Below, in pieces: positions 6,815-42,420 of a stretch of 64,000 nt of DNA (positions are counted from its first letter, which is position 1; each line of letters opens with the position of its first letter). Location: NCBI GenBank assembly GCA_945898015.1, contig CAMDGM010000003.1, positions 14,618-78,617 of the forward strand, read 5' to 3'. The notes beneath the pieces were generated by a model, which was not told the DNA's origin, made no database searches, and was given only the letters and a program-made list of their open reading frames with translations. The position numbers and the translations under genes are program-made. The DNA is from PVC group bacterium (GTDB lineage Bacteria > Verrucomicrobiota > Kiritimatiellia > CAIKKV01).

Positions 6815-7062
6815 TGCGTCGTTTCGGGCGCAAATGGCCGGCCGCTTTCGGGCGGATCCGCCTTCCGGCTGGAGGCGTCGGGGCACGAGCCCACGCCGCC
6901 TCGCCGTCAGGCGGCTGCGCCTCGAAATCGGCGCGTCCATTTTCGCCTGATCGAAACGTCGCAACCGGGTCCACTCGCGCGCCCGGCCATCTATCGATGA
7001 GCCTCGGGCGGCGCGCGATCTCGGTTCCCGTGCCAAGCCCGCAGTAATATTGATGTTCAAAG
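6815..7062 (+). repeat. Structured GC-rich dispersed repeat, copy 1 (full length, + orientation)
   Basis: ~85% identical to 21520-21745; contains palindrome GGCGGATCCGCC, hairpin GGAGGCGTCGGGGCACGAGCCCACGCCGCCTC, core CGCCTGATCGAAACG(T/C)CGCAA. Confidence 0.8.
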
Positions 7063-7290
7063 AGTCGAGCCTTGGTCTCACGGGCTTTTGTTGGAAGCCG
7101 TCTCGCGCGCCGCCCGAGCGAGCGCGACAGCGCCGCGGGCGCGCGAAGGCGTTGTCGTTGCGGCGTTTCGATTAGCGGAAATGAGCGAGCTGATTTTGGA
7201 GCTCAGCCAGCCGACAACGGAGCGGCGTGGGCTGGTGCCCCGACGCTCCCAGGTGGAGGCTGGATCAGCCCAAAAGCAGCCGCGCATTAA
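7062..7290 (-). repeat. Same repeat family, copy 2 (inverted orientation, abutting copy 1 tail-to-tail)
   Basis: Reverse complement of 7141-7290 aligns to 6840-6975; reverse complement of 7062-7140 aligns to the middle module of the 11.4 kb copy. Confidence 0.75.
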
Positions 7291-7294
7291 CGCC

Positions 7295-7385
7295 GAAACG
7301 CCGCAACCCGACGGGTCATCCCGCATCGTTTATTGGCCAGCATGGCCGAAAGGGGAAATCCTAGACGTGGTTTTGGGGCCATTCT
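7295..7385 (+). repeat. Same repeat family, copy 3 (partial 3' module)
   Basis: 'CGAAACGCCGCAACCCGACGGG...GCCAGCATGGCCGAAAGGGGAAATCCTAG' matches 42.3 kb and 11.4 kb copies. Confidence 0.7.
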
Positions 7386-7482
7386 TACCGCTTGTCTTCC
7401 GGGTATCCTCCGGCCATAATCCTGGCGTGGCGGTTCTGTAACACGCCGGGGTGCCTTGACATTGTTTAGCGGGAGGAACGTG

Positions 7483-8748
7483 ATGAGCATGCGCAGGCTT
7501 GCCGTGTTGGTCTTGGCCGGACTCGCGACGGTGTCCGCGGCGGATGTGACGAACACCGTGGATCCCAAGGCCGAAGCGGTGCTTCAGTCCGTATCCGACT
7601 ATTTCAAGGCGGCGCCGTCCTTCAAGGTGGAGATGGAAGCCGAGACCCGGATCGAGGCCGAGGATATGAAGCAGGAGTTCACCACCCGGGCCGTCCTGGC
7701 GGTGAAACAGCCGGACAAGCTCGCGATGACGGTCAAGAACAGCATGATCGGGACGATGGTCCTGGTGTGCGACGGTACCAATGTCACCGCCTTTCTCCCG
7801 GCCTTCAACCGGTACACGGTCAAGCCCTCGGGCGGATCGCTGGAGCAGCTTTCCCTGGTCATGGGGGGGGCGTCTCCCGCCTGCCTGCCGGTCGTTTCCG
7901 CGCTGATGGAGCGCGACCCGTATGACGCGCTGGTGAAAGACGCGTCCCGCATCCAATACCTGGGCGAGGAAAAGCGGGGCGAGGTTGCCTGCCATCGCTT
8001 GAAATTCACGCATCCGGAGTTTGATTGCGAGGCCTGGATCCGGACCGGCCCCCAGCCGTTGATCGAAGCGGTCAAGCCCTGTCTGGCCAAAATGGGACTG
8101 GCGGGAAAATTGCCGCCCGGCATGAAGACCGACGTGATTCTCAACCTGACGGGATGGGAAGTTGGCACGGACCTGCCCGCCGCTTTGTTCGCCATGACGC
8201 TTCCGCCGGAGGCCCAAAAAGCGGACTCCCTTTTCCCGGGGCAGTCGGAGGAAGAACCGGTGGAAGTGGATCCCACGGAGGCCCTCCGGCTGAAGCCGGC
8301 GCCGACGTTCCGGTTGCCGTTACTGGCGGGCGGGACATTCGATTTGGCGGCGCAGAAAGGCCAGGCCGTTTCCGTGCTGTGCTTCTGGACCACGTGGGCC
8401 GGCCCCTGTCGGCTCGCCCTTCCCATGCTTGAAAAACTGGCCGCCGCCTTCAAGGACAAAGGGGTGGCGGTCGTGGGCATCAATCAGCAGGAAGGGGATG
8501 CCGCGATCAAGGAATTTCTGGGGAATGCCGGGGTGACGATTCCCGTGGCGCTCGATGGCGGCAGCGAGGTGGCCGGGCTTTACCAGGTGGCGGGGGTCCC
8601 CCAGATCGTGGTGGTCGATAAAAGCGGCCTCGTGCGCGAGGTCTATATGGGCTATGGAAAAAGCCTCGAGGACGAATTGCGGGTTGTGCTCGAGGCGCTG
8701 ACCGCCCCGCCGCCCGCGGCTCCTCCGGGCGCGCCGGCCGGGCCATAG
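7483..8748 (+). CDS. Secreted LolA-like (DUF2092-type) domain fused to TlpA/ResA-like thioredoxin-fold domain (atypical WAGPC site)
   Basis: Signal peptide MSMRRLAVLVLAGLATVSA; C-terminal 'FWTTWAGPCRLALP...VVGIN...GVPQIVVVD' thioredoxin-like fold; GGGAGG RBS. Confidence 0.6.
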   Translation: MSMRRLAVLVLAGLATVSAADVTNTVDPKAEAVLQSVSDYFKAAPSFKVEMEAETRIEAEDMKQEFTTRAVLAVKQPDKLAMTVKNSMIGTMVLVCDGTNVTAFLPAFNRYTVKPSGGSLEQLSLVMGGASPACLPVVSALMERDPYDALVKDASRIQYLGEEKRGEVACHRLKFTHPEFDCEAWIRTGPQPLIEAVKPCLAKMGLAGKLPPGMKTDVILNLTGWEVGTDLPAALFAMTLPPEAQKADSLFPGQSEEEPVEVDPTEALRLKPAPTFRLPLLAGGTFDLAAQKGQAVSVLCFWTTWAGPCRLALPMLEKLAAAFKDKGVAVVGINQQEGDAAIKEFLGNAGVTIPVALDGGSEVAGLYQVAGVPQIVVVDKSGLVREVYMGYGKSLEDELRVVLEALTAPPPAAPPGAPAGP

Positions 8749-8781
8749 ACACTCCGCATTTAGTCCTGACCCTTTGGCGCC

Positions 8782-9525
8782 TTACAAAACCACGGACAGC
8801 ATCAGGCTGCCCCAGAACGGGTTATCATCCTTGTAGAGGGCCTTCGCGCCAGCTCGGATATCCGAGTCCGGCAGCCAGGCATATTGGATGCCGGGCGTGA
8901 GGGTGACGGTTTTCGACAAGGCGAACGACACCTTGGCGCCCGTGGTTACATCGTTCAAGGCCGCATCGTCCACGCCGAAGTAGAAGGCGTTGTAATCCTC
9001 GTCCGCGGCGCCTATCGAGGCGATCAGCTCCAAGGTGGTGGTATCGCCAAGGGCGATTTCCTTTGAAAGTGCCAACGAGGCATAGAACCCGTCGGCCTCC
9101 TCCACATCGCGGTAGACGGAAAGGGTGGGGACCGCCAGCGACGCGTCCGGCAGGGACAGGCTTCCGTAGACTTCCCGCGTACTGGAAACATCTGTGTTGG
9201 GGAACAGGTACTCGATCACGCCGACGCCATATTCCATGGCGCCCCACTGGCCGCCGTAGGAGACGGTGAGATCGACCTCCGAGAAGTCGGCGTGGGTCTC
9301 TCCGCGGTCGGTGGCGTCGTAGTTCGCCCAGACGTTCACTCCGAATCCGTCCTTTTCCACGTTCAAGGCGGGCTGGATGACGGCTTCGTCGTTCAGCATC
9401 TGGCCGCGCCATACGTAGGCGGAGAGGATCGGCAGGTCCACGCCCGCATCCGCGCCGCGCGCCGTTGTTCCCGCGCCCAGAATTCCAGCCGTCGCTATCA
9501 GCATCAGTCCCGTTGCCGTCCGCAT
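8782..9525 (-). CDS. Outer-membrane beta-barrel protein (hypothetical)
   Basis: Signal peptide; alternating hydrophobic beta-strand pattern; 'YVWRGQ' block; length ~250 aa. Confidence 0.5.
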   Translation of the reverse strand: MRTATGLMLIATAGILGAGTTARGADAGVDLPILSAYVWRGQMLNDEAVIQPALNVEKDGFGVNVWANYDATDRGETHADFSEVDLTVSYGGQWGAMEYGVGVIEYLFPNTDVSSTREVYGSLSLPDASLAVPTLSVYRDVEEADGFYASLALSKEIALGDTTTLELIASIGAADEDYNAFYFGVDDAALNDVTTGAKVSFALSKTVTLTPGIQYAWLPDSDIRAGAKALYKDDNPFWGSLMLSVVL

Positions 9526-9775
9526 GTTCGTACTCCCTGGTTGTTGTTTCAGTCCGTAATTCCCTTAGCAAGGGCAATGCCAACTCGGGCTAAAGAGTTG
9601 TAAATGACTCACGGTGAATCGGTTGCAAGATAAATGACGAGAAAGTCGCCATTCATTGGATGCGACAAGATGGTCGAATAATGCTTTGAGTGCTACAGAA
9701 TTGTTCCATCGGTTGATAGAGCGGAGACTTCTATATACAGGGGTCACGCTGTGCGGCTGTCCGGAGGCCCGGCGG

Positions 9776-10408
9776 TTATGGCGACCGTGATTCGCGTTTC
9801 GTCCCCGCGCTCACCGGGATGAGAATTTCGTTGCGGCGCAGGAACCAGGGGGTGAAGGGGGGATTGTAGCGGGCCCACACGGGTTCGCCCTGGACGGTTA
9901 AGCCCTTTGCCGCGATCCACGTTTCCAGCTCCTTCTTATGTTGCCGGTAATGCTTTTCCGACCAGACACCGGAGTAGCGAATCGCGGCCATCCGGCGGCC
10001 AGGAATCTGGCGCAAGGCGACTTTCGGATCGGTTGGCGCGGGGAGGTTTTGCAGGGTCGAGCCGGCCGGCATCATGAAGCTGACGGCCCAGCCGCCCGGG
10101 GCGGGTTCCTGGCTGACGGGGGCGGTCATGGCGATTTTCTCGCTCCGCGCCTCCTGTGAAACGGGGGCGGTCATGGCGATGGTGTTGCTCGTCTGGTTGT
10201 CGCCGGAGATGTAGCGAAAAAGCCGGCGGAATGCCTTATTCCCGGCCTGTTCCAGCGAGCCTTCCACGATGGTTTCCGCGAGCACGACCGGCGCGTAATC
10301 GCGGAGTTCGCAGGCTTCAGCTTTCTCCGTCACCGTATACTTGGCTTCTTCGAGGGCCATGGCGTTTAATCCTCCCAGAATAAGGATGAGGACAGAATGG
10401 ATGTGTTT
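9776..10408 (-). CDS. SOUL/HBP heme-binding family protein
   Basis: Signal peptide MKHIHSVLILILGGLNAMA; SOUL-like blocks (YEVREY-like 'CELRDYAPVVLAE', 'NPPFTPWFLRRNEI'). Confidence 0.6.
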   Translation of the reverse strand, partial: KHIHSVLILILGGLNAMALEEAKYTVTEKAEACELRDYAPVVLAETIVEGSLEQAGNKAFRRLFRYISGDNQTSNTIAMTAPVSQEARSEKIAMTAPVSQEPAPGGWAVSFMMPAGSTLQNLPAPTDPKVALRQIPGRRMAAIRYSGVWSEKHYRQHKKELETWIAAKGLTVQGEPVWARYNPPFTPWFLRRNEILIPVSAGTKRESRSP

Positions 10409-10526
10409 CATCACCGGTACTCCTAGCAAGATTTATCAGTCAACCGATGCAAGTTGAAGGAACGATAGACTGGATAGTGCTCTGATGCAATTGGTTTTGG
10501 GGCGTGGGAACACCATATACCTATAT

Positions 10527-10994
10527 TTACGGCGTCTTCGCGTTGAGTCGGGCGCGAAGCGCCAGCACGTCGATCTTGTCTTTATCGCGCAAACTGTCCT
10601 GTTTCAGCAGGATCAAGCCTTCGGCGCCCAGGTAAGGAACCGGAACGCCATCCAGGTCGATCCAGAGCCGATAGGCAAGCAGATCCTCGAAATGGCGGCC
10701 GCCCATGCGGACAAACAGATCGATGGGAAAGTCCTCAATAACGCGGACTGCGCCTTCCTCATCGGTGAAATCGGCGGCGGTTAATTCACTGGCAAAACCC
10801 TGGCCATACCGGGAAAGGGACGACAGCAGGCGGTCGATATTGTCCGGTGTGTTGGCGACCAGCAGGTCGACATCCTCGGTGGTGCGGACAAAGCCGTTGA
10901 GGGTGCAGGCCACGCCGCCCACGGTCATGAACGCCACTTTATTTCGGGCGAGGGTGACCAACAGTTTTTCGAACAGGGTAAGTTCCGGAGTCAT
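10527..10994 (-). CDS. Minimal nucleotidyltransferase (MNT/pol-beta fold) family protein
   Basis: 'FMTVGGVACTLNGFVRTTEDVDLLV' GG...R.T.D.D NTase motif; 155 aa. Confidence 0.5.
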   Translation of the reverse strand: MTPELTLFEKLLVTLARNKVAFMTVGGVACTLNGFVRTTEDVDLLVANTPDNIDRLLSSLSRYGQGFASELTAADFTDEEGAVRVIEDFPIDLFVRMGGRHFEDLLAYRLWIDLDGVPVPYLGAEGLILLKQDSLRDKDKIDVLALRARLNAKTP

Positions 10995-11344
10995 CGCGTG
11001 GCTCGACTTTCAGGTTGCGAACAAACCGGTTGAGGCGGTCCAGGCGCACGAGCGGGCGTTCCGGTTTTTCCCGGCCCACCGTTTTCCGGATCGACTTGTC
11101 AGGGGTGTCATTCACGTTTCTATGATAGCAGGGTAAAGGACGAGGCGCAATCCTGATACTTGCCTAAGGAACCCTTTCAAAGGGAATAGCGTGGATGAGA
11201 GGTTGGGGGGGTGAAGGCCGGGCTGGGTGCGGTGTTTCGGGCGTTCCCCGTCGGGTGCTTTTGCGCGCTAAGGGCTTCAGGCTGGATGGGCCGGGCCTTT
11301 AGGCCACGTCCCATCGCCTTCAACCCTTATCCTCGCAAAATCAC

Positions 11345-11525
11345 CTCGTCGTGGTCTGCCTGATCGAAACGCCGCCCCCGAGATCCATCGCGCGCCCGGC
11401 CGCTGTCGCGGCCTCGGGCGGCCCATCGACTCCGCTCAGGGCAGGCGCGCGAGACGGCTTCCGACCAAAGCCCGTTTCGTTCACATGCCAGCATAGCCGA
11501 AAGGGGCAATCCGTAGGTGTGGTTT
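11345..11525 (+). repeat. Same dispersed repeat family, copy 4
   Basis: 'GCCTGATCGAAACGCCGC...TCGCGCGCCCGGCCGCTGTCGCGGCCTCGGGCGG...GCCAGCATAGCCGAAAGGGGCAATCCGTAGGTGTGGTTTTGG' matches copies at 6.9/7.1/7.3/42.3 kb. Confidence 0.75.
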
Positions 11526-11576
11526 TGGACGCTACCTTAGGAAGTGTTTCAAAACAGACGGTCTCCGTTTGTGGGT

Positions 11577-13697
11577 TTATTCTGTCCGGGGTGCGGCGGA
11601 ATGGAGGGTATACCGGACCGAGCGGGCTGTGCCGTTCGTGGCGGGATCGAGCAGGGTGATGAGCGCGGTGCAGGTGCGGGCCTTGGACTGGTAGCCGTCC
11701 GTCCAGCCCGGGGACAATAGCAGGGCGCGGGGGCGGTCGAATTGAATATCCATGGCGCCGTTGAAGCGTTCGACGCGAATCCGTTCGGCGGCGGGAAAGG
11801 CGTCGCCGGGCTTGGCGAGGACCCAGACGTTGGACGACTGCACGCGGATCACGGCTGCGGTCTGGGCGGGCAGCTCCTGCAGGAAAAGCGGCAGGGTTTC
11901 GTAGAGTTCGGCGACCGGCACGGCGTTGGAGCCGGGTGTGACCACGGTGTCCACGGTCACGCCGGCGGCCCCGGCCGTGAAGGTGCGGGTGTAGGCGTAG
12001 CCGGAGTTGGTTTCCGTTTGCGTGTCGGGCGTCAGGAGGGGAATGGCGCCTGACACCGTGATGACGGCCTGGGTGGCGTCCAGATGACGCGTGGTTTGCG
12101 GCTGGCGGAGGCGGGCGGTGGTGAGGAGGGCGCCGGCGGCGGTGCAGCCGCTGACCGCGTGGATGGGCCAGGCGCGCCATTCGGACCAGGAATCGAACAC
12201 TGCGCCCTGCACGCCGCGGCGGCGGCCGGCGAGGGTGACGCCGGAGGCCGGCGTCCAGAAGATGGAAAGCTGGCCGCCGCCGTAGCCGTAGGGCAGGTTG
12301 TTGTGGCCGAACGACCGGCCCACGGGTCCGGTGTGGATCGCAACGGCGTAGGTTGGGAACCGGGCGATGACGAAAGCGTCACCGAAGGTGCGGATGAAAG
12401 AGCCGTCGCGCCGGTAGGGGGAGAGGAGCAGGGGCGACTCTGCGGCGGCCAGGGCGCGGAGCCGGGCGAGGTGGCCGGCGGGCGCGTGGATGGAGGCGAA
12501 GCGGGCGCGGTAGCTCCAGTGGGATTCATGCCAGGCGCGGGCCTTGAGGACGGGCGGCTTGACGAGGTTGAGCGTGCCGGCCAGCTTGGCGGGGATGGCG
12601 GCAAGTGTCGGGTCGTCGGGCAGGGTGGCCAGATAGATGGCGTCGTCGCTGAGCATGGCGGCGGATTGCAGGCGGTCGGGGAACGGCCATTGATCGTGCG
12701 CCGGGTCGGCGGAGGTGCGCGAGCTCATGGCGCTGGGGCCGGAGGCGCCTTTGTTGTCGGGATTGGGAAAGCAGAGGTGGGCGCGAAGCGCGAGGGCGTT
12801 GCGCATGGCGTCGCGGGCGAACGGCCAGTCGGAGGCGAGCGCCGCCCAGGAGCCGAAGAACAGGCTGATGCCGTTGTAGGAGGTGTCGAAGCAGCCGTTA
12901 TCCACGAAATAGCCGGCCTCGTTGAAGAAGGCGGGGTTCGTGAAGAGGGGTCGGGAATAGGACTCCGCGAGGGCGGCCATGCCGGGGTCGCCGGTGGCTT
13001 TTTGAACATACCACAGGCCGACGGGCGCGAAGAGATCCATGTCGGTCATGAGCCCCTTGGGGCCCCAGGCGGCGAGGCGGCGGCTGAGTTTTTTGAGGCC
13101 GGTTTCGAAGGCGGCCCGGGCCTCCGCGGGGAGGGCCGTTTTACAGAGGCCGTAGGTGTCGGCGATCCAGATGAGGTTGCCGCCGAGGTAGTCGGCGCGG
13201 TCAGAGCCCTGCGGGTTCTGTTCGTACAGGGTGTCGAGCATGATCAGGTCGATGATGGCGAGGGTGAGGGCGCGGAGTTGGAGGGCGCGGTTATCGCGGT
13301 AGGGGTTGCCGGGCCAGGACCAGGCGGCGAGGCGGGCGAGCGATTGGCAGGCGCCGGGATCGGCGGGGAGGGCGAGTCCGTTGGTGCCCTCGATGGCGGC
13401 GAGGGTGAAGGCGGGCGCGGGGAGCAGCGCTTCGGCGATCGCGGGCGGGGTGAGGGACAGGAGCCAGAGCTGGTAGCGGGCGTCGTCATCGGACGGCGTG
13501 ATGGCGGTGAACGCCTGGGGGGTGACGGCGAAGTCGTTGGAGGCGAGGGTGGCGAGGAAGGTGCGGAGGGTTTGCTGGTAGGGGTGATGGGCGGGCAGGG
13601 AGGTGACGGGGAGTGTGACCTGGACATAGGCGGCGGGTGCCGCCGTGGCGAGGAGTGCGGCGGACAGGGAGGTGAGCAGGCGGGTGAGTAATGTCAC
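11577..13697 (-). CDS. Secreted 706-aa hypothetical protein (possible polysaccharide-lyase/heparinase-II/III-like; unverified)
   Basis: Clear signal peptide MTLLTRLLTSLSAALLATAAPAA; long non-repetitive ORF; 66 bp downstream of the co-oriented PEP-domain gene. Confidence 0.45.
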   Translation of the reverse strand: MTLLTRLLTSLSAALLATAAPAAYVQVTLPVTSLPAHHPYQQTLRTFLATLASNDFAVTPQAFTAITPSDDDARYQLWLLSLTPPAIAEALLPAPAFTLAAIEGTNGLALPADPGACQSLARLAAWSWPGNPYRDNRALQLRALTLAIIDLIMLDTLYEQNPQGSDRADYLGGNLIWIADTYGLCKTALPAEARAAFETGLKKLSRRLAAWGPKGLMTDMDLFAPVGLWYVQKATGDPGMAALAESYSRPLFTNPAFFNEAGYFVDNGCFDTSYNGISLFFGSWAALASDWPFARDAMRNALALRAHLCFPNPDNKGASGPSAMSSRTSADPAHDQWPFPDRLQSAAMLSDDAIYLATLPDDPTLAAIPAKLAGTLNLVKPPVLKARAWHESHWSYRARFASIHAPAGHLARLRALAAAESPLLLSPYRRDGSFIRTFGDAFVIARFPTYAVAIHTGPVGRSFGHNNLPYGYGGGQLSIFWTPASGVTLAGRRRGVQGAVFDSWSEWRAWPIHAVSGCTAAGALLTTARLRQPQTTRHLDATQAVITVSGAIPLLTPDTQTETNSGYAYTRTFTAGAAGVTVDTVVTPGSNAVPVAELYETLPLFLQELPAQTAAVIRVQSSNVWVLAKPGDAFPAAERIRVERFNGAMDIQFDRPRALLLSPGWTDGYQSKARTCTALITLLDPATNGTARSVRYTLHSAAPRTE

Positions 13698-13763
13698 GAG
13701 GGATTCCTTAATAGTGGAGGGACAGGCCGAGGTTGGGACCGTTGAGGGATTGTTCGGTTTTTT

Positions 13764-16397: not shown

Positions 16398-16413
16398 ATC
16401 CCCCCCGGCGTAA

Positions 16414-17838
<1,425 letters not shown>

Positions 17839-17933
17839 TCAAGGTTGTTCTGCGCGAAGCACGGGAGGGCGAGCGTCCCCGCGAGCCGCATGGCGGATTT
17901 CCGGCGGCGGGTTGAGCGGCGCCGTTTCGGGTG

Positions 17934-18707
17934 TCAGGACCAGCAGCGTTGCAGCATCTGCCAGAGCTGGGCATACATGGCGTTGATGGCGATGGCGATC
18001 AGCAGCAGGAAGGCCAGCCGGCGCAAGACGGGCTTGGAGAATTTGGCGCCGATCCGCAAGCCGAGGAGGGAGCCCAGCAGGACCACGGGTGAGAGGGCCA
18101 CGCCCCAGGCCATGCCCAATAAGGTGGACTTGCCGAATGCGCCATAGAGCAGGGCCAGTTGAATCGGCACCATGCTGATGAACGTGGCAAACAGGAAGGC
18201 GCGCGTCCGCTCCACGGTCCAGTCGTGGGTCATGACCCACAGCACCAGCGGCGGGCCGCCCATGGAGCAAAGGCCGCCGGTGAATCCGCTCAGGCCGAAG
18301 GCCGCCAAATCCCAGCCCTTGTGCAGCCGGGGGCGCGGCCGGGGCTGCCAGGCGGCCTGCAGGATCACCAGGAGGAGCAGGACCATGCCGATCCAGAACT
18401 TGATCTGGGCCGGCGGATGGCTGGCCAGGATGCTGAGCGCCCAGATCCCGAGCAGCATGGTGGTGGCGCGGATGGCCACCGAGAAGCCGACGATTTTCCA
18501 GGGCACCGCGTGGCTCAGGTGGTGCACGCCGCTGGCGGCCTGCACGGCGGTGCAGACGGAGGAGATGGCAATGGCCATGGGCACGGGAAGCCCGATCATC
18601 AAAAACAGGGGCACGGAGAGCAGGCCGAAGCCAAAGGCCACCATCCCCTGCAATAATCCGCCGGCCAGCACAATCAGCACGGCGGCGATAATCTGGTGGG
18701 CGTCCAT
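17934..18707 (-). CDS. TSUP family sulfite/anion exporter (TauE/SafE)
   Basis: 257 aa; 8 TM helices; duplicated 4-TM halves typical of TauE/SafE. Confidence 0.7.
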   Translation of the reverse strand: MDAHQIIAAVLIVLAGGLLQGMVAFGFGLLSVPLFLMIGLPVPMAIAISSVCTAVQAASGVHHLSHAVPWKIVGFSVAIRATTMLLGIWALSILASHPPAQIKFWIGMVLLLLVILQAAWQPRPRPRLHKGWDLAAFGLSGFTGGLCSMGGPPLVLWVMTHDWTVERTRAFLFATFISMVPIQLALLYGAFGKSTLLGMAWGVALSPVVLLGSLLGLRIGAKFSKPVLRRLAFLLLIAIAINAMYAQLWQMLQRCWS

Positions 18708-18737
18708 GGGGTTGGTCCTTGTGGCGTTAGCGGGCGG

Positions 18738-19511: not shown

Positions 19512-19520
19512 AGGGTTCCT

Positions 19521-21428: not shown

Positions 21429-21519
21429 AACGGGGGGAAGGATAGCGGGTATGGGCCGGGATGGAAAGCGGGATTGTCGGGCGGGTCTGGGAAGCGGGTT
21501 GGCTGCCTGTGCGGCTTGC

Positions 21520-21745
21520 GGCGTTTCGGGCGTTAATAGGCGGCCGCTTTCGGGCGGATCCGGTTTCCGGCTAGAGGCGTCGGGGCACGAGCCCACGCCA
21601 CCTCGCCGTCAACCGGCTGCGCCTCGAAACCGGCTCGCCCATTTCCGCCTGATCGAAACGCCGCAAGCCCAAGCCCCTCGCGCGCCCGAAGGGCGGCGCG
21701 CGATTTCGGTTCCCGTGAAAAGCCCGATGACAATATATTTACAAG
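21520..21745 (+). repeat. Same dispersed repeat family, copy 5 (full length)
   Basis: Near-identical modules to 6815-7062 (GGCGGATCCGG..., GGCGTCGGGGCACGAGCCCACGCC, CGCCTGATCGAAACGCCGCAAGCCC, GCGCGCGATTTCGGTTCCCGTG). Confidence 0.8.
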
Positions 21746-29813: not shown

Positions 29814-29816
29814 AAA

Positions 29817-30955: not shown

Positions 30956-30956
30956 T

Positions 30957-30985: not shown

Positions 30986-31103
30986 CCTTATTCGTCTTAT
31001 GTGTCCCATATGTGACGAGTTGGGGCGGGCAGGGGTATAACAGATGTGGCGCATCCGATAACCGGATGCCGATCGAGGGCAAAAGCCCGAAAGGAGAGAC
31101 GAG

Positions 31104-31358
31104 ATGAATCGTAAACGGTGTTTCGTGGTGGCGATGGCGGCGATGCTGGTGTTGACCGGGGTGTCTTTCGGGGGTGAGGGAAAAGCGAAGCGGCAGGGAG
31201 GCGGAGCGGGAACCGCCGCCGCGGCGGGCATCCAGAAACGGGACCGGCTGAAAGATGGAACCTGCACAACGCCGGTCGTGTCTGCCGCATCCGTGAGCAC
31301 GGCGGCCAAGACGCGCGACCGGCTGCGCGATGGATCCTGCCTGACCCCGACGCCGTAG
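31104..31358 (+). CDS. Small secreted peptide with internal duplicated Cys motif
   Basis: Signal peptide MNRKRCFVVAMAAMLVLTGVSFG; repeats 'KRDRLKDGTCTTP' / 'TRDRLRDGSCLTP'; AGGAGA RBS; followed by strong terminator. Confidence 0.45.
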   Translation: MNRKRCFVVAMAAMLVLTGVSFGGEGKAKRQGGGAGTAAAAGIQKRDRLKDGTCTTPVVSAASVSTAAKTRDRLRDGSCLTPTP

Positions 31359-31378
31359 TCGGCGGCCGGTTGGATCAA

Positions 31379-31412
31379 GGGCTGGAAGCAAGCGTGCTTC
31401 CAGCCCTTTTTT
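31379..31412 (+). terminator. Rho-independent terminator (GGGCTGGAAGCA-AGCG-TGCTTCCAGCCC + TTTTTT)
   Basis: Perfect 12-bp GC-rich stem, 4-nt loop, T6 tract. Confidence 0.8.
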
Positions 31413-31435
31413 ATTGGGCCGGCGTCCGCGCCGGC

Positions 31436-33205: not shown

Positions 33206-33298
33206 GATGGAGTCCCTTCCTGTTTCGTGTCCGACCAGTGTTGGCCATGTATACTATACACGGCCCAGGTGAAAAACGTCACATTCTTGGTTCGCCGG

Positions 33299-35002: not shown

Positions 35003-35076
35003 CCAGGCTCCTGTTCAAAAAAAAGACCCGGAACACGGGTTCCGGGTCTTAGTATGGATAGCAGGCCTGGGTTTGC

Positions 35077-36177
35077 CTAGTTTTTTCCACGTCCCTTGAC
35101 GCCGGCCGCGGTGGCGGCGTTGGAGTGGGCCTTTTCGTGGGGCCGCAGGTCGCGCGCGGCCTGGCCGGCGCGCCACATTTCGGAGTTGCGCATGACGGCG
35201 AGCTCGACCTCGAGCAGTTGCTTGTAGTTCGGGCCGCCGCAGGTCTTCATGACGCGGCGGGCTTCGGCCTGGGACTTCACGGCCTTATACAGGTCCTTGA
35301 AGACCGGCAACGTCGCCTTCTTGAACTTCGGCTTCCAGTCCAGCGCGCCGCGCTGGGCGGTGGCGGAGCAGTTGGCGTACATCCAGTCCATGCCGTTTTC
35401 GTCGACCAGGCGGATGAGGCTCTGCGTGAGTTCCTCGACGGTTTCGTTGAACGCTTCGCTGGGGGAGTGGCCGTTGACGCGCAGCACGTCGTACTGGGCC
35501 TCCATGATGCCGGCCAGGGCGCCCATCAGCACGCCGCGCTCGCCCACGAGGTCGCTGGTGACCTCGTTTTCGAACGTGGTCGGGAAGAGATAGCCGGACC
35601 CGATGGCGATGCCGAGCGCGATGGCGCGGTCGTTGGCCCGCCCGGTGGCGTCCTGGGCCACGGCGAAGCTGGAGTTGATGCCCACGCCGGCCAGGAAGTT
35701 GCGGCGCACGGAGGTGCCGGAGCCCTTGGGGGCGACGAGCAGCACGTCGATATCGGCCGGGGGCTTCACGGAGGTGAGGTTGCGGTAGACGTAGGCGAAC
35801 CCGTGGGAGAAATAGATCGCCTTGCCGGCGGTGAGGAACGGTTTCACGCGCGGCCACACCATTTTCATGGCGCCGTCGGCCACGAGCATCTGGATGATGG
35901 TGGCGCGCTTGGCCGCTTCTTCGATGTCAAACAGGGTTTTGCCGGGAACCCAGCCGTCCTTGACCGCGCGTTCCCAGTCCTTGGGGTAGGACTTGGACTG
36001 GCCGACGATGACGTTAACGCCGTTTTCCTTCATGTTCAGCGCCTGGGCGGGACCCTGGACGCCGTAGCCGATCACGGCCACGATTTCCTTTTTCAGAACC
36101 TGCTGGGCCTTGCGGAGCGAAAACTCTTTGCGGGTGACGACGGTTTCCACGACGCCGCCAAAGTCGATCTTAGCCAT
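35077..36177 (-). CDS. ilvC: Ketol-acid reductoisomerase
   Basis: 'IAVIGYGVQGPAQALNMKENGVNV' NADPH site; 'LVAPKGSGTSVRRNF'; class-I KARI blocks. Confidence 0.85.
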   Translation of the reverse strand: MAKIDFGGVVETVVTRKEFSLRKAQQVLKKEIVAVIGYGVQGPAQALNMKENGVNVIVGQSKSYPKDWERAVKDGWVPGKTLFDIEEAAKRATIIQMLVADGAMKMVWPRVKPFLTAGKAIYFSHGFAYVYRNLTSVKPPADIDVLLVAPKGSGTSVRRNFLAGVGINSSFAVAQDATGRANDRAIALGIAIGSGYLFPTTFENEVTSDLVGERGVLMGALAGIMEAQYDVLRVNGHSPSEAFNETVEELTQSLIRLVDENGMDWMYANCSATAQRGALDWKPKFKKATLPVFKDLYKAVKSQAEARRVMKTCGGPNYKQLLEVELAVMRNSEMWRAGQAARDLRPHEKAHSNAATAAGVKGRGKN

Positions 36178-36377
36178 ACGATGAACTCCTTGGTAGTAAT
36201 GCAGCCGGACCGTCTGATTCGGCCATGAAAGAGCGGAATTATTACTGATTGTGCCGGGGAAGTCTAGGGGAAATGCAGCAAAGATGCAAAATGGGGTTGT
36301 GCCCGGTAATTATTACTACTAAGGTATAAGCATATTGTCGTATTTACCATGCGCCTGGAGGGGTGTTTTTGAAAATC

Positions 36378-39300
36378 ATGTTTCTATGCCCTAAGTGCCA
36401 GAAGAAGCTGGAGTCGGACGGGGAGGCCAGCGGGCGGAAGGTGAAATGCCCGACGTGCGGGCAGGAGATGGTGGTCCCGAACCGGGAGCTGAAGCCCGGG
36501 GTGACGCTGGGCGGGTTCTGCATTGTGCGCAAGATTGGCGAAGGGGGCATGGGCGAGGTGTTCCTGGCGCGGCAGAAGTCGCTGGACCGGGATGTGGCGC
36601 TGAAGGTGCTCACGCCGCAGCTATGCCGGGACAAGGAGTTGGTGAGCCGGTTCTTCAGCGAAGTCAAGGTGCTGGCCCGGCTGGAGCATCACGGGATTGT
36701 GACCGCCCACGAAGCCGGCGAGGACGGAGGCATGTTTTTCCTGGCCATGGCCTTTGTGCCGGGCCATTCGCTCCAGGAGCAGATCGACAAGAGCGGGGCC
36801 TTTGACGAAAAGACGGCGCTCCGGCTGGTTCGCAAAATGGCGATGGCTCTGGATTATGCGTGGACCGACCACAAGCTGCTGCACCGGGACATCAAGCCGT
36901 CCAACGTGCTGCTCGACGGCCGGGGCGAGCCGAAGCTGGTGGATTTCGGGCTGGCCAAAAGCATCGACAAGGCCGAGGGCCTGACGGTCAGCGGCACGGT
37001 GATGGGCACCCCGAACTATATGTCGCCCGAGCAGGTTCGCGGAGAGGGAAACCTGGATTTCCGGGCGGACTTGTACTCGCTGGGGGCGACGCTGTTCCAT
37101 ATGCTGACGGGGAAGATGCCCTATGCGGGCAGCAGCATCATGGAAACGCTGCAGAAGCAAATCAACGAGGCGCTGCCGGATCCGCGCACCATCAACCCGG
37201 CGGTCGGCAAGGGCTGCGTGATGCTGTTGCAGAAGATGCTGGCCAAGAAGCAGGACCAGCGGCCCGGGAGCTGGAAGGTGCTGCTGGGGGATGTTGACCG
37301 GGTGCTGGCTGGCCAGGAGCCGACCGGGCAGGCGTTGAAAGAGGGCGAATCGGTTTTGTTGATGCGCGGGGATTACCGGGGCAAGACCCCGGGCTCGAAG
37401 CGGGCGTCGTCGTCGGGTAACTCGCCTAAAAAGTGGATTGGGGTGGCAGCTGCGGCCGGTGGTCTTGTGGTGCTGGCGGCGGGCCTGACGATATGGGTGA
37501 AGCGCCGGCCTCCCGCCGGAGCGCCCGATCCTGTGCCGCAAGCGGCAGCGCCCGCCGCGGTTTCAGCCGCGCCGGTGGCGGCAGTGCCGACTGCGGCGGC
37601 GGCGAAGCTGGCGCTGGAGGCGAGAGTCCAGGAAGCGGCGGCGGTGGCGGCGGCCCAGGAAAAGGCGAGACTGGACGTTCAGGCGCGCCAGGCGGCCGAG
37701 GCGGCGGCGAAAGAACTGGCGGCCCGGGAACAGGTTGCGAAAGAAGCCGCCGCGCAGGAGGCGCGGGCGAAAGAAGAGGCAGCCAAGGCGGCCCAGCTCA
37801 AGGCGGCGCAGGAGCGCTTTTCGGCCCGGCAGGCCGAGGTGGCGGGACTGTTGTTGAAGGCGGATTTTGCGGGCGCCCGGGAAAACGCGGGAACGCTGCG
37901 GTACGATGCGGCGCTGGCGCCGGTGTCGGCGGAGGCCGAGGCGCTGGCCGCGCTGGTGGACCGGATCGGGGACCCGGACACGGTGGTGCTGCGGTCGTTT
38001 GAGAAGAACAAGGGCGAGACGGTGAAGGTGGAGGGCAAGACCGGGCTGGCTGTGGAGATGCGGGTGCTCGGGGTGTCCGGCGGCCGGGTCCAGACGCGGC
38101 AGGTCCTGCAGGGGGCGAGCGTGGACCGGGCGTTTGGGCCGGGGGACTTGAGCCTGCGGGAGCGACTGGGCCGGATCGGGGATGCAAAGACGCCGGAGGC
38201 GATGATTTTGCGGGGGCTGATGCTGGGCGTGGAGGGAGGGGACTGGGTCAAGGCGAAGCAGGTCTTGGGCGAAGCCGGGCCCGGCCTGGGCGAGGCGCTG
38301 GTGGCGGCTCTTCAGGCGAAAAGCGCGTCCCGGGAGGAGCAGGCGGCGCGCCAGGCGCTGGGCGTGATATTGAAAACGGCGGCGCTGCCGGCGGACTTGA
38401 ATGAACCGGGCCGGGTGATGGAGCTGCTGGCCGCAAAACCGCTGAGTCCTGAAAATAAGGACAAGGTCCGGGCCGGCGTGGAGTCGTTTTTAAAGACGTA
38501 CGGGAACTCGGAAGAGGCCGGCGTGGCCCGGGCCTTGGTGGAAGGCCTTAAAGGGATCGATCCGGAGGTGGCCGCGAAGCTGGAGCTGGCGGGGGTGTTC
38601 AAGCTGGCGGGCTTGACGTTGGACCTGGAGCAGACCGCGGCGCTTCTGGATGACATCGAGGCGCGCGGGTTCGGCAAGGACGCGGCGAAAATCCAGGCGG
38701 CGGCGGCGGCGTTCAAGCGCGACCATGGCAAGAGCGAGATCGGCAAGCAGGCCGCGCCCCTGGTCGCGGCCCTGGCGGCGGCCCAGGAGGCGGCGCCCGT
38801 TCCGTTCACCCCGGTTCCGATGCTCGAGGCCACCGAGGAGAATATGAAGAAGGCGCTTGCGGCGCTCCAGGCGGCCAATAAAAAGGCCACCGGGATTTCC
38901 AAGGCGGAGTATCGAGTGGTTAAAGATGGTTTGTGTTTGGCAATTCATTCGGCGGAAAACATACAGGATATTCGACCGCTGGCCGGGCTTCCGTTGAAAA
39001 CACTTTCCCTGTTAAGGGCGGAAATCAAGGATTTCACGCCCTTGACGGGCATGCCGCTTGAAACGCTGACGCTGAACAATTGGAAAGGGGATAAACTTGA
39101 TTCTTTTCCGGACTTGAAAGAGTTGCGCTCCTTGGGCCTGTCCTATTCGTCTATCAAGAGTCTGCTTCCCTTCCGCCGGCTAAAGCTTAAATCGTTGTCC
39201 GTCAATAACGGTCGGATGGACAAACTGGACGGGATCGAAGGGTTCCCGTTGGAAACGCTTTCAATCAGAAATTGCCCGGTGGAAGACTTGAGCCTGTTGG

Positions 39301-39845
39301 CGGGGAAACCATTGAGGGCTCTCGGGATTGGATCACTTACGGATCCGGTTATTCACGACATTTCTGTGGTGAAGGGTTTTGATTTGTTGACGTTTGAACT
39401 GGAGGGTTCCAGTGTCAAGGACTTGTCACCGCTGGCGGGAAAAGCACTCAATAAAATCGCGCTTTATCGTTCGCCCATTTCCGATTTAACGCCGTTGGCG
39501 GGCATGCCGTTGCGGGAAGTGCGATTATGGGGCCTTACGGTAACGGATCTGACCCCGATCAAGAATGAACTGCTGCAACGACTGGAACTGGACTCCCTTC
39601 CTGTAAAAGAGTTGAAACCTCTGGTCGGCTGTCCATTGCAGTCTTTGCGCGTCACCAATATGCCGAAACTCATGGACGCTCAAAACATTCCGGACTATTT
39701 TCCGGACATTCAAGATCTCATGGTGATGGAGTCTCTCGCGAAGCCCGAGTTGTTGAATCGGATGAAGAATCTCAAAAAGTTGACGGTGTTTGCTCCTGGA
39801 GAGGTCGTGGGGCGAGTCGTTCCCGTGAACGCGATCAAGAAATAA
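36378..39845 (+). CDS. Ser/Thr protein kinase with N-terminal zinc ribbon, TM segment, Ala-rich coiled region and C-terminal leucine-rich repeats
   Basis: 'CPKCQ...CPTCGQ' ribbon; kinase 'GEGGMGEVFLARQ','HRDIKPSNVLL','DFGLAK','GTPNYMSPE'; TM 'IGVAAAAGGLVVLAAGLTIWV'; C-terminal LRR consensus (LxxLxLxxxxIxDLxPL). Confidence 0.8.
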   Translation: MFLCPKCQKKLESDGEASGRKVKCPTCGQEMVVPNRELKPGVTLGGFCIVRKIGEGGMGEVFLARQKSLDRDVALKVLTPQLCRDKELVSRFFSEVKVLARLEHHGIVTAHEAGEDGGMFFLAMAFVPGHSLQEQIDKSGAFDEKTALRLVRKMAMALDYAWTDHKLLHRDIKPSNVLLDGRGEPKLVDFGLAKSIDKAEGLTVSGTVMGTPNYMSPEQVRGEGNLDFRADLYSLGATLFHMLTGKMPYAGSSIMETLQKQINEALPDPRTINPAVGKGCVMLLQKMLAKKQDQRPGSWKVLLGDVDRVLAGQEPTGQALKEGESVLLMRGDYRGKTPGSKRASSSGNSPKKWIGVAAAAGGLVVLAAGLTIWVKRRPPAGAPDPVPQAAAPAAVSAAPVAAVPTAAAAKLALEARVQEAAAVAAAQEKARLDVQARQAAEAAAKELAAREQVAKEAAAQEARAKEEAAKAAQLKAAQERFSARQAEVAGLLLKADFAGARENAGTLRYDAALAPVSAEAEALAALVDRIGDPDTVVLRSFEKNKGETVKVEGKTGLAVEMRVLGVSGGRVQTRQVLQGASVDRAFGPGDLSLRERLGRIGDAKTPEAMILRGLMLGVEGGDWVKAKQVLGEAGPGLGEALVAALQAKSASREEQAARQALGVILKTAALPADLNEPGRVMELLAAKPLSPENKDKVRAGVESFLKTYGNSEEAGVARALVEGLKGIDPEVAAKLELAGVFKLAGLTLDLEQTAALLDDIEARGFGKDAAKIQAAAAAFKRDHGKSEIGKQAAPLVAALAAAQEAAPVPFTPVPMLEATEENMKKALAALQAANKKATGISKAEYRVVKDGLCLAIHSAENIQDIRPLAGLPLKTLSLLRAEIKDFTPLTGMPLETLTLNNWKGDKLDSFPDLKELRSLGLSYSSIKSLLPFRRLKLKSLSVNNGRMDKLDGIEGFPLETLSIRNCPVEDLSLLAGKPLRALGIGSLTDPVIHDISVVKGFDLLTFELEGSSVKDLSPLAGKALNKIALYRSPISDLTPLAGMPLREVRLWGLTVTDLTPIKNELLQRLELDSLPVKELKPLVGCPLQSLRVTNMPKLMDAQNIPDYFPDIQDLMVMESLAKPELLNRMKNLKKLTVFAPGEVVGRVVPVNAIKK

Positions 39846-39966
39846 GTTTGGCGGTTTTTCTGACTGCGCCGGATCATCGTGTAATCCGCATTTGCCTTTA
39901 TCCAGGAATTCGTGAATACTCCGGCTTGTGGGATAACCCCATGATAAAAACGAATGGAGTTGCACG

Positions 39967-42066
39967 ATGTTGACCCGATTTCGCTTGATGGCTTTGCTGG
40001 GCGTGTTAGTGGCCGCGGTTTCCGTGAATGGGCAGGAGCCCCCCTCACCGCCGGACACTCCGCCCCAGCCGCAGGTTTGGTGGCCGACGCAACCGAGCCG
40101 GCTTCCCTTTGTGCATACGCTCTTCACCAGTCATATGGTGTTGCAGCGTGACGTGGCGGCGCCGATCTGGGGATGGGGCGCGCCGGGTGAGTCGATTTCC
40201 GTTGTGGTTGCGGATGAGAAGGGTGGCAACCGGGCCACCGCCACCGCCGTGGCCGGGGCGGACGGCAAATGGATGACGAAAATCGGGCCGTTTGCGGCTG
40301 GCGGACCGCTGACGCTCACGATCAAGGGCGCGAAGGAGCAAGTGGTGCTCACGGATGTGCTGGTCGGCGACGTCTGGCTCTGTTCCGGCCAGTCGAACAT
40401 GGGCATTCCGGTGCGCACGGCGGCCAACGCCACGGAAGAGATTGCGCAGGCCAAGTATCCCGGTATCCGGTCTTTCACCGTGGGCTTTTATCCATCGTAT
40501 GTGCCGCTGCCGACTCCTCTTCCGGCGGCCTGGGAGGTTTGCACGCCCGAGACGGTGGCCAGTTTCAGCGCCGTGGGCTATTACTTTGCCCGTGACATTC
40601 ATCAAGCCGAAAAGATTCCCATCGGCATCATTCACAGCTCGGTGGGCGCGACCGCGGCCGAGGTGTGGATCAGCGGGGACGGCCTCCGGAAGTATATGCC
40701 CTACGATTTCCATGATCAACTGGCCACGCTGGCCACGAACATTGGCGATCCTGCGGTTGACTATTTCAAGGAGGTTGAACAGTGGGCGGCGGCCGTGGAT
40801 CCCGAGAGCGCGAAGAAGCAGATCACCTCCGACCCCAACCTGAACACGGCGGACTGGATGGATATGGCGGTGCCCAAGCCCTGGGAAGAGGCGGGGTTGA
40901 GCAACTTTGACGGGATGGTCTGGTTCCGTACGGTTGTCGACATTCCTGCGGCGGTGGCGGGCAAGCCGGCCGTTCTCGCGCTGGGCTCCATCCGGGATAC
41001 GGACATCACCTGGCTGAACGGTACGCTGGTGGGGTGCAACCAGAACAAGGGTTCCTATCGCCGGTATCGGATTAACGGCGCGTTGCTGAAGCCGGGCCGG
41101 AACCTGCTGGTGGTGGCTGTGGTCAACATCAATGGGCCGGGCGGATTTTCGGGGGAGCCGCGCGGCATGATGCTCAACTCGGAGGCCGCCTCCACGAACG
41201 TCCACCTGGCCGGAATCTGGAAGGCCCGGCCGGGGGCCGCCATGAAGGACCTGACGCGCGCCTTTCCCAAGCCCAAAACGGGCTACTATAAAACGATCAC
41301 GGGGCTGTACAACGGGATGATCGGGCCGTTGGCGCCCTTTGCCATCAAGGGGGCCTTGTGGTACCAGGGTGAAGCCAGCTGGCCTTTCTGGCTGCAATAC
41401 CGCCGGCTGCTCCCCGCCTTGATTGCCGATTGGCGGGATCAATTCCAGGTGGGTGAGTTCCCCTTCCTGATCGTGTCGCTCGCGACGCAAGGCGGGAAGC
41501 AGACGCATCCGACCGAGCCGGGGTATGGCGAGGTCCGGGAGGCGATGTGGCGGACGGTCCGCAAAGTTCCCAACACGGGGCTGGCGGTCGCGGCGGATCT
41601 GGGAGACGAGCCGGTATCGAACATCCATCCCAAGAACAAGCAGGATGTCGGGCGGCGACTGGCGATGGTGGCCCGGCAGCTGGTGTATGGCGAAAAAGAG
41701 CTGCTGGTTTCCGGCCCGGAGTTCACCGAGATGATGCTGGAGCGCAAGAATGCGGATCCTGATCCGGCCACCGTGAGCCCCGATAAAGAGTTTGTCAAAG
41801 AATTCAAGACCCGGCTGTATTTCAAGCATGTGGGCGGCGGGCTGGTGTTCAAGCCGGGCAACGCCAAGCCGAACGGGTTTGCGGTCGCCGGCGAGGACAA
41901 GAATTTTGTCTGGGCCGATGCGGTGATCGAGGGCGACACGGTGGTTGTTTCCGCGCCCGGCGTGGTGGTGCCGCGCTATGTCCGGTATGGCTGGGCCTAC
42001 AACCCCATCATCACCCTCTTCAACAAGGAAGGCCTGCCCGCCATTCCCTTCCGTACGGACGAATGA
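39967..42066 (+). CDS. Sialate O-acetylesterase-like (SASA/DUF303) carbohydrate esterase
   Basis: Signal peptide; 'GDVWLCSGQSNM' SGNH nucleophile block; ~700 aa typical of SASA. Confidence 0.65.
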   Translation: MLTRFRLMALLGVLVAAVSVNGQEPPSPPDTPPQPQVWWPTQPSRLPFVHTLFTSHMVLQRDVAAPIWGWGAPGESISVVVADEKGGNRATATAVAGADGKWMTKIGPFAAGGPLTLTIKGAKEQVVLTDVLVGDVWLCSGQSNMGIPVRTAANATEEIAQAKYPGIRSFTVGFYPSYVPLPTPLPAAWEVCTPETVASFSAVGYYFARDIHQAEKIPIGIIHSSVGATAAEVWISGDGLRKYMPYDFHDQLATLATNIGDPAVDYFKEVEQWAAAVDPESAKKQITSDPNLNTADWMDMAVPKPWEEAGLSNFDGMVWFRTVVDIPAAVAGKPAVLALGSIRDTDITWLNGTLVGCNQNKGSYRRYRINGALLKPGRNLLVVAVVNINGPGGFSGEPRGMMLNSEAASTNVHLAGIWKARPGAAMKDLTRAFPKPKTGYYKTITGLYNGMIGPLAPFAIKGALWYQGEASWPFWLQYRRLLPALIADWRDQFQVGEFPFLIVSLATQGGKQTHPTEPGYGEVREAMWRTVRKVPNTGLAVAADLGDEPVSNIHPKNKQDVGRRLAMVARQLVYGEKELLVSGPEFTEMMLERKNADPDPATVSPDKEFVKEFKTRLYFKHVGGGLVFKPGNAKPNGFAVAGEDKNFVWADAVIEGDTVVVSAPGVVVPRYVRYGWAYNPIITLFNKEGLPAIPFRTDE

Positions 42067-42289
42067 GTCTTTCTTCTGTGCAAAGCAGTGGAGGGCGTCG
42101 CGCCGTCGACGCCGTCTTTTCTGGTAGGCCGGGCGCTATGAGCCCGGCGTCTCACACTTTCTGGTGCTTTTCATGACATATCTATTTGTGTAGCCGTGCC
42201 GCGCTCGTAGCGCGCGGCCTACACAGACCGTACGCTTCATTTTATTCACAGCTTCTACGAGCCTGGCTTTTTGTGGTGGTCGGTTGTGT

Positions 42290-42420
42290 CGGTTTCCAGT
42301 GCGGCTCCGTCTCAAAATCGCGACGCCCAGTTCCGCCTGATCGAAACGCCGCAACCCGACGGGTCCTCCCGCCTCGTTCACGTGCCAGCATAGCCGAAAG
42401 GGGCAATCCGTAAGCGAGGA
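42290..42420 (+). repeat. Same dispersed repeat family, copy 6, directly upstream of the second ECF sigma gene
   Basis: 'CGCCTGATCGAAACGCCGCAACCCGACGGGTCCTCCCGCCTCGTTCACGTGCCAGCATAGCCGAAAGGGGCAATCCGTAAG'. Confidence 0.75.

Follow-up and report, generated by a model that had tools for sequence, protein, structure and literature searches.

Hairpin-bearing repeats in a Kiritimatiellia genome are probably derivatives of an ISKra4-group insertion sequence lineage with long hairpinned ends

The stretch of DNA analyzed here, hereafter the window (64,000 nt of contig CAMDGM010000003.1, positions 14,618 to 78,617 of the forward strand, assembly GCA_945898015.1, PVC group bacterium, Kiritimatiellia), carries a family of GC-rich hairpin repeats, which lie beside genes for a lactate racemase (LarA), a DUF2092-TlpA protein, glutamate dehydrogenase, and an extracytoplasmic function (ECF) sigma factor. 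A preliminary description, made from the sequence alone, had listed six copies between 6815 and 42420, and all six exist, each being recovered by repeat finding and by self-BLAST of the window at similarities far above chance. Positions 6798-6985 match 21500-21688 at 84.7% identity across 189 nt (E 1e-53), 7136-7310 match 21688-21512 in inverted orientation (78% across 177 nt), and 11207-11422 is a diverged copy, 66% identical to 6793-7012 across 220 nt (E 1.5e-21). A separate block, here named the tail, is common to 7294-7378, 11471-11528, and 42342-42427 at 84-86% identity (83.7% for the first against the third, 86.2% for 11471-11528 against 42368-42425). Alignment showed that each full unit, of about 240 nt, consists of three hairpins. 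The first, hp1, is imperfect, about 155 nt long, and has the base GGGTTGCGGCGTTTCGGGCG ... CGCCTGATCGAAACGCCGCAACCC; it is followed by the smaller hp2, a GC-rich hairpin (TCGCGCGCCCG...CGGGCGGCGCGCGA), and by the short hp3 (GACGGCTTCCGACCAAAGCCCGT). The arm CTGATCGAAACGCCGC in hp1/hp2 is invariant, and so are several unpaired positions, notably a CTGAT bulge in the 3' arm.

We built a covariance model, R1, from 18 copies taken from the window, from two metagenome-assembled genomes (MAGs), and from six metagenome contigs. In the window, the model detected four full units at 194-218 bits (6807-7045, 11220-11479, and 21509-21730 on the + strand, 7076-7313 on the - strand) and one further unit, internally deleted with loss of its apex (42277-42393, +); with the filters off, no more units were found in the 64 kb. 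Units and composites in the window measure 150-650 nt. The features of the family and the promoter-like sites next to them are given below, where end types and tips refer to a complete insertion sequence (IS) described further on.

6727-6806, + strand: outer end segment of copy 1, with a canonical-type IS tip (GGGTCCGCTCACGATTCCGTACCG...), its tip likeness equaled in 2/500 shuffles
6807-7045, + strand: copy 1, right-end type, hp1 at 6813-6965, then hp2 and hp3; 217.9 bits in the covariance model; clusters with IS right ends
7076-7313, - strand: copy 2, inverted and tail-to-tail with copy 1 (spacer 7046-7075), hp1 at 7157-7307; 213.7 bits
7311-7376, + strand: tail-type terminus 1 (...GCCAGCATGGCCGAAAGGGGAAATCC...GTGGTTTTGG), 83.7% identical to 42342-42427, its end homologous to the end of copy 3
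7392-7420, + strand: predicted sigma70-like site, TTGTCT-17-CATAAT, 15 nt past the tail end at 7376 and before the DUF2092-TlpA gene (7483-8748)
11145-11154, no strand: possible left copy of a 9-bp target duplication (GCGCAATCCT; right copy ACGCTACCT at 11529-11537), imperfect
11152-11528, + strand: copy 3, complete non-autonomous element of about 375 bp with a left tail-type inverted repeat from 11152 to about 11196; 193.7 bits
17804-17832, - strand: predicted sigma70-like site, TTGACA-17-CATAAT (11/12), its -35 box inside an IS-end remnant and its -10 box outside
17819-17935, + strand: solo outer-end remnant of an IS, its first base that of the IS tip, cut off directly behind the first hp1 arm
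21466-21730, + strand: copy 4, solo end of right-end type with an outer remnant at 21466-21508; 216 bits
42277-42357, + strand: copy 5, hp1 minus its apical ~95 nt (5' arm remnant plus 3' half); 14.8-15 bits
42358-42426, + strand: tail-type terminus 3, 86% identical to 11471-11528 and 84% to 7294-7378
42441-42469, + strand: predicted sigma70-like site, TTGACA-17-AATGAT, 14 nt past the tail end at 42426 and before the ECF sigma gene

More specifically, copy 3 joins a left-end-type hp1-hp2-hp3 series (11220-11479) to a tail terminus (11476-11528); copy 4 comprises hp1 (~21515-21668), hp2 (21678-21703), and hp3 (to ~21727); and the piece 42301-42357 of copy 5 is 84% identical to 21614-21669. Some of what had been said of the copies needs to be amended. 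Five of the blocks quoted as confined to the copies indeed occur only there, but the 11-mer GGCGGATCCG(C/G) is also present at 51293. The copies were found at the positions listed, but the family reaches further, into an outer segment (6727/6749-6806) and into the solo remnant at 17819-17935, and the supposed copy at 7295-7385 is a terminal module and not a full unit.

Complete IS elements carry these units in their ends. In L147, a metagenome contig, units at 181-420 (+) and 2299-2526 (-), scoring 199-217 bits, lie inverted around two divergent genes, one for a DUF6788 protein (Pfam, E 3e-24) and the other for a 455-aa protein that reaches 217 bits against the NCBIfam model NF033572 of ISKra4-family transposases (cutoff 205). 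Outside the units, the inverted repeat extends through 86-178 and 2547-2638 at 89-96% identity, and its tips (GGGGCGCATGTCACTTCCGTAGGGG) are flanked on both sides by CCCTCCAG, a clean 8-9-bp target duplication. The element is a complete IS of about 2.55 kb with terminal inverted repeats of about 335 bp. Between the long repeat and the IS genes, at most 28 nt remain on one side and 56 nt on the other, and as no second pair of inverted repeats lies beside the genes, this is a single IS with ~335-bp ends; for the same reason, the idea of an ISKra4 IS nested in an older miniature inverted-repeat transposable element (MITE) was rejected. A second contig from an independent sample, L156, has this gene pair flanked by the same units, with a transposase 95% identical to that of L147. 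The end units of the two contigs are 97-98% identical and score 194-217 bits in the model that gives the window units 194-218 bits. Within the family, left-end and right-end units are 63-66% identical, with the stems kept in both, and all other copies, those of the window included, cluster as left-end or right-end type; the outer part of copy 4 aligns to the right end of the L147 IS.

A search with the transposase gave 2,495 relatives at E <= 1e-40, most of them on contigs of roughly the length of the IS itself. A DUF6788 gene divergent from the transposase gene is also present in L152, L153, and L157. It encodes a small, Cys-rich protein (L147 449-823, L156 268-663, L153 3561-3965, and L157 191-565, all on the - strand), and in L147, it is preceded by a strong predicted sigma70-like promoter (858-831, 11/12). 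A full-text literature search returned no paper that mentions DUF6788.

Copies of the family also occur in related bacteria. The genome contigs were scanned with the pattern GCCTGATCGAAACGYCGC, and the matches listed are mostly due to chance; the real copies among them are in L024, L045, and L071, with a weak short match in L030. A MAG labelled Kiritimatiellia, JAWOJA01 (L045, L071, and L123), and a Verrucomicrobiota MAG (L024) thus carry copies, and a longer pattern found copies in six metagenome contigs, which brings the known range of the family to two MAGs and six metagenome contigs at the minimum. No matches were found in a plasmid collection or in viral contigs, where an initial scan had given chance matches only. 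Four contigs assembled from short reads (L149, L071, L024, and L156) have an end that falls within the repeat, which would be expected of DNA present in many copies. In L137, one repeat copy is adjoined by an open reading frame (ORF; 891-2330, -) with a DruA-like (Druantia) N-terminal region and an ISAs1-family transposase domain.

JAWOJA01 carries three composites of about 580-720 nt, each made of two inverted units like 6807-7313 in the window. The best defined of them, L123 9101-9775, is about 675 bp long, lacks a transposase gene, has the tips GGTGCGCATC.../...GATGCGTCC, and is flanked by GTTGTGCT / ATTGTGCT, a 7/8 match that corresponds to an 8-bp target duplication. This composite is a bona fide MITE.

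Direct evidence that an element of the window has been gained or lost recently comes from L149, a contig of a strain about 97% identical to ours, which aligns with 7290-11150 and then with 11530-12735 and misses the ~375 nt of copy 3. Copy 3 is therefore an insertion/deletion polymorphism. The missing segment runs from the left end, (T)CCTGATACTTGCCTAAGGAACCCTTTC..., through hp1-hp3 to the tail end, ...GTGGTTTTGG, and its left end forms a weak inverted repeat with the reverse-complemented tails (equaled in 2-21 of 1000 shuffles). L149 has GCGCAACCT at its empty site, and the exact junction could be shifted by a few nt, alternative reconstructions scoring 145-150. The suggestion of composite, MITE-like elements made in the preliminary description is supported by these observations, namely by units that are subterminal parts of IS ends in L147 and L156, by transposase-less versions in a related MAG, and by the strain polymorphism of one copy.

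Several copies had been placed just 5' of genes, which is correct and would be explained by the known tendency of ISKra4-group elements to insert upstream of sigma-A promoters (PMC3942029). Predicted sigma-A promoters lie 13-17 bp from the junction of inverted repeat and genome in some of these elements (Guerillot et al. 2014, PMC3942029), and promoter targeting is common to ISKra4-group elements and TnGBS/ISLre2, in the latter of which unequal ends set the orientation (PMC3942029). By consensus scan, 7392-7420 is the only promoter-like site in 6600-7600 and 42441-42469 the only one in 42100-42600; at the third tail, which ends at 11528, no such site was found. The sequences beyond the tail termini are unrelated, suggesting that the promoters are targets of insertion and not cargo of the element, and 7392-7420 is presumed to be such a target. 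In JAWOJA01, a composite (L123 9163-9734) also lies upstream of the ortholog of the DUF2092-TlpA gene, for which repeated promoter targeting is the simpler reading. A conserved cis-regulator of this gene was considered and rejected, as the orthologs in L150 and L151 have upstream gaps of 50 nt and 126 nt with no element.

Two observations were made beside these sites. Behind the L123 composite, at 9784-9915, a second tip-like sequence (GGGCGCACGAAACG...CCGTATGGGG) precedes a promoter-like site at 9915-9943, and the stacked tips suggest repeated insertions at one promoter. At the ECF sigma gene of the window, an ATG in frame with the gene lies at 42476, behind a predicted -10 box whose last base is 42469; the gene probably starts there and not at the GTG at 42449, in which case its mRNA may be leaderless.

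The outer ends of two elements overlap or adjoin host genes. The remnant 17819-17935 matches positions 1-88 of the L147 end (blastn E 6.6e-6; nhmmer E 0.0011; 0/500 shuffles), and a stretch of 46 nt that spans the LarA stop codon, 6749-6794, is 93% identical to part of it (17874-17919). Positions 6758-6807 match the subterminal region of the L147 IS end (E 2e-4). The 550-residue LarA product matches Pfam LarA_C up to residue 531, so that the final ~14-21 codons of the ORF (5138-6790) and its stop codon (6788-6790) appear to be element DNA. Copy 1 overlaps the 3' end of this ORF and consequently has no purely intergenic position, so that the statement that all copies sit between genes needs this correction. 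On the other side, the site 17804-17832 points toward the glutamate dehydrogenase gene (16414-17808, -) and resembles a hybrid promoter created by the IS; canonical IS tips have GTGACA at the position of its -35 box.

Taken together, we propose, with a probability of about 0.75, that the repeats descend from an IS lineage of the ISKra4 group with long hairpinned ends, as MITE-like derivatives, copies with internal deletions, and relics of single ends. On this reading, they are a new family of an ordinary kind of mobile DNA and neither an RNA family, a regulatory system, nor repetitive extragenic palindromic (REP) sequences or bacterial interspersed mosaic elements (BIMEs). The ISKra4 group has a DDE transposase of the prokaryotic Mutator-like superfamily, and the window copies would have been moved in trans by such an enzyme, encoded elsewhere in the genome or in its ancestors. 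Transposition would follow the copy-out/paste-in route proposed for the superfamily, with an 8-9-bp target duplication, and a preference for sites that precede the -35 box of sigma70-type promoters by ~14-15 bp would place copies immediately 5' of genes. The mosaic of module subsets seen today may have arisen by later deletions and by recombination between the palindromic hp1 arms; the composite 6727-7376 is probably the product of stacked insertions and of recombination at these arms. Either selection or, at the DNA level, template-switch correction of quasi-palindromes may keep the stems. The elements of the window are called derivatives, without strict membership in the ISKra4 group, since the transposase is present in L147 and L156 and absent from the window.

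A number of observations weigh against this proposal. Neither an ISKra4-type transposase gene nor a DUF6788 gene was found in the 64-kb window by tblastn with the L147 proteins, and the autonomous form is known from two near-identical contigs. Target duplications in the window amount to the imperfect 9-bp one at copy 3, with none around the composite 6727-7376. The promoter spacing is drawn from two sites (2/3 tails) found by consensus scan, and no promoter lies at 13-17 bp from the insertions in L147 and L123. A degenerate pattern of the canonical tip has no match in the window, and the 11-mer TTCCGTAGGGG with 2 mismatches occurs there at chance level. That the tail modules are homologous to canonical IS tips was examined and found unsupported (111-357 of 500 shuffles); the status of the tail as a terminus is derived from the boundary in L149, from its weak similarity, in inverted orientation, to the left end of copy 3, and from the constant offset to the -35 box. 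The mismatch between tail and canonical tip would mean either strongly unequal ends or a second carrier. Moreover, the ISs of L153, L155, and L157, whose transposases are 70-83% identical and which have a common tip (GGGCGCATGTCACTTCCGTAGGGG), possess ordinary inverted repeats of 25-37 nt from which the hairpin modules are entirely absent. With close relatives devoid of it, the hairpin module is an accessory of one sub-lineage and could be a passenger. The functional inference drawn from the stems has a weak point of its own, because template-switch correction of quasi-palindromes could give paired changes without selection.

The absence of modules from these close relatives is also an argument for another explanation, according to which hp1-hp3 form an independent cassette, spreading by itself or by recombination, that was captured by unrelated carriers, these being the ends of one ISKra4 sub-lineage and small tail-ended elements. 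The occurrence of window modules with two kinds of terminus, the tail type being unlike IS tips by shuffles, and the mosaics of module subsets fit this explanation as well. However, no mechanism or enzyme for independent spread is visible, and each module with fully legible borders is enclosed by an IS or MITE frame that has terminal repeats. Three such frames have a target duplication (L147, L123, and window copy 3, one of them imperfect), and the ancient divergence of left and right module types (~65% identity) fits a long residence in IS ends. We therefore consider a free-living cassette unlikely.

The conservation of the hairpins bears on whether the repeats act as RNA, as the preliminary description had proposed in suggesting small RNAs or attenuators. 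Across the 18 copies, standard pairs occupy 95.9% of stem cells, compared with 81% in column shuffles and ~42% with slid partners. Two-sided, compensatory changes are seen in 31/53 pairs, compared with 5-15 in slid controls, and the covariation score is 0.341, with <=0.069 in controls. Such very strong covariation in a long stem, folding z-scores of -5.3 and -8.8, the position of several copies just upstream of genes, and an hp2 in copy 4 that scores terminator-like could all suggest structured cis-regulatory RNAs or small RNAs (attenuators, terminators, or RNase targets) selected at the RNA level in untranslated regions of the host. The pairing is nevertheless symmetric between the strands: among 901 cells, there are 15 G-U and 13 A-C wobbles, one-sided changes are almost absent, and both strands fold far better than shuffles. 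This is the pattern of a DNA palindrome, maintained by selection on either strand or by arm-to-arm correction, unlike that of an RNA made from one strand. In addition, orientation and position relative to neighboring genes vary, the orthologs in L150 and L151 have no element upstream, copy 3 is dispensable in the sister strain L149, and the units form transposon ends. No Rfam family matches at the gathering level; in E-value mode, solely plant microRNA hairpin models appear, far below threshold, and these reflect a long hairpin. An RNA function selected in the host is thus very improbable.

The same preliminary description had compared the repeats with REP/BIME elements, and a related possibility is that they are REP doublets (REPINs), multiplied by a REP-associated tyrosine transposase (RAYT; Y1, IS200-like) acting on single-stranded hairpins. 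The stems of REPINs are kept by compensatory change, as here, and the repeats are likewise intergenic, GC-rich, and modular, with inverted doublets and with conserved bulged bases (the TGAT bulge) that could mark a protein site. The unit of ~240 nt with its 155-nt hairpin is nevertheless far from a REP of 20-40 nt, and the units are located in the ends of a DDE-transposase IS that makes 8-9-bp target duplications, whereas Y1 enzymes to our knowledge make none. No RAYT gene was present at any locus examined, these being single loci and not a whole genome. A RAYT-driven origin is accordingly scarcely credible. Integron attC sites, retrons, and CRISPR-like arrays were dismissed, as the copies are 4-20 kb apart and conserved in sequence, with no cassettes or arrays.

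Within the proposed origin from an ISKra4-group lineage, the role of the hairpins is a separate question. Retention of the stems through ~35% divergence, together with the invariant bulges, argues for a role of the hairpins. If selection keeps them, they would serve the element, most plausibly as subterminal sites for the transposase or a host factor, or as inward barriers to read-through. We tentatively suggest, as a possibility that we judge doubtful, that hp1, hp2, and hp3 constitute a functional structured module kept by selection in each IS end, for example, as a platform for transposase or host factor on single-stranded or cruciform DNA, or as an inward-facing transcription barrier. A barrier of this kind, if real, could keep an element located immediately upstream of promoters from being activated by neighboring transcription and from disturbing it. 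A functional module, if real, would be a type of IS-borne structured element undescribed for Mutator-superfamily DDE transposons.

Comparison with known systems places the family closest to the ISKra4 group (p-MULT 4 of the prokaryotic Mutator-like DDE transposases; PMC3942029). In L147 and L156, the transposase scores above the NCBIfam cutoff for ISKra4, and the L147 element ends in inverted repeats with an 8-9-bp duplication of its target. Two termini of the window lie 14-15 nt upstream of predicted sigma70-like -35 boxes, within the 13-17 bp given for members that target promoters, and there is an extra gene beside the transposase, as in some described ISKra4 elements. The family differs in its ends, ~335 bp long with a 155-nt hairpin and two smaller ones where close relatives have 25-37-nt repeats, and in that the window holds transposase-less derivatives only. 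TnGBS/ISLre2 elements (p-MULT 3) insert 15-17 bp upstream of sigma-A promoters (PMC3942029). The two promoter-adjacent ends of the window are both of the tail type, comparable to an orientation set by unequal ends; on the other hand, TnGBS/ISLre2 belongs to another transposase clade, its hosts are Firmicutes, and hairpin modules are not described there.

Small structured MITEs in many copies include Correia/NEMIS of Neisseria, ERIC/IRU of enterobacteria, RUP and BOX of pneumococcus, and Nezha of cyanobacteria. Like the present family, they are mostly intergenic and modular, can form long hairpins, often lie near promoters or gene ends, and are present or absent between strains. Unlike in these MITEs, the long hairpin here is inside each end and is not formed by pairing of the terminal repeats, which gives a full element two long hairpins; a further difference lies in the parent IS family and in the preferred target. 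The resemblance to REP, BIME, and REPIN (GC-rich palindromic intergenic repeats, mosaics, inverted doublets, and compensatory stems) is set against differences in size, in the linked enzyme class (DDE versus Y1), and in target duplications. In eukaryotes, Mutator and Mutator-like elements have terminal inverted repeats of ~200 bp or more, subterminal binding sites, abundant deletion derivatives, and 9-bp duplications. They have the transposase superfamily, the long ends, and the deletion derivatives in common with the present family, a relationship at the superfamily level only, and we know of no description of their terminal repeats as internal hairpins.

Further features of the window were noted. 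Between the SASA-esterase gene and copy 5, at 42090-42260, there are three more GC-rich hairpins (e.g., GTGTAGCCGTGCCGCGCTCGTAGCGCGCGGCCTACAC), unrelated to the repeat family and unrepeated in the window. A tandem hexamer array, CGATAC/CGATGC (58291-58498, with an echo at 59050-59097; ~34 copies, 85% matches), flanks and enters the gene 58586-59128, which encodes a protein of the 23S-rRNA-intervening-sequence type (PF05635). A 28-nt inverted repeat between convergent ORFs (60109-60179; AACTACGAAATACGCGAAAGGCACGAAA / TTTCGTGCCTTTTGCGCTTTTCGTAGTT, 89% complementary, with a 15-nt loop) is probably a bidirectional terminator.

In conclusion, the conspicuous GC-rich intergenic hairpins of these uncultured bacteria are explained as debris of mobile elements, for which an annotation as RNA is unwarranted, and the repeats explain breaks in short-read assemblies of these organisms; the named relatives that carry them are MAGs labelled Verrucomicrobiota and Kiritimatiellia only. 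In the host, one element appears to supply the last codons of larA with their stop codon, an end remnant has placed a perfect, predicted -35 box before the glutamate dehydrogenase gene, and two elements abut predicted promoters, one of an ECF sigma gene and one of a thiol-disulfide oxidoreductase gene. The long stems have been kept through 35% divergence, be it by selection or by template-switch repair. To the ISKra4 group, the family adds a sub-lineage with very long, internally hairpinned ends and apparently its first MITE-like derivatives, our literature search having found no paper on MITEs derived from this group, as well as tentative independent support for promoter-proximal targeting outside the phyla in which it was described.

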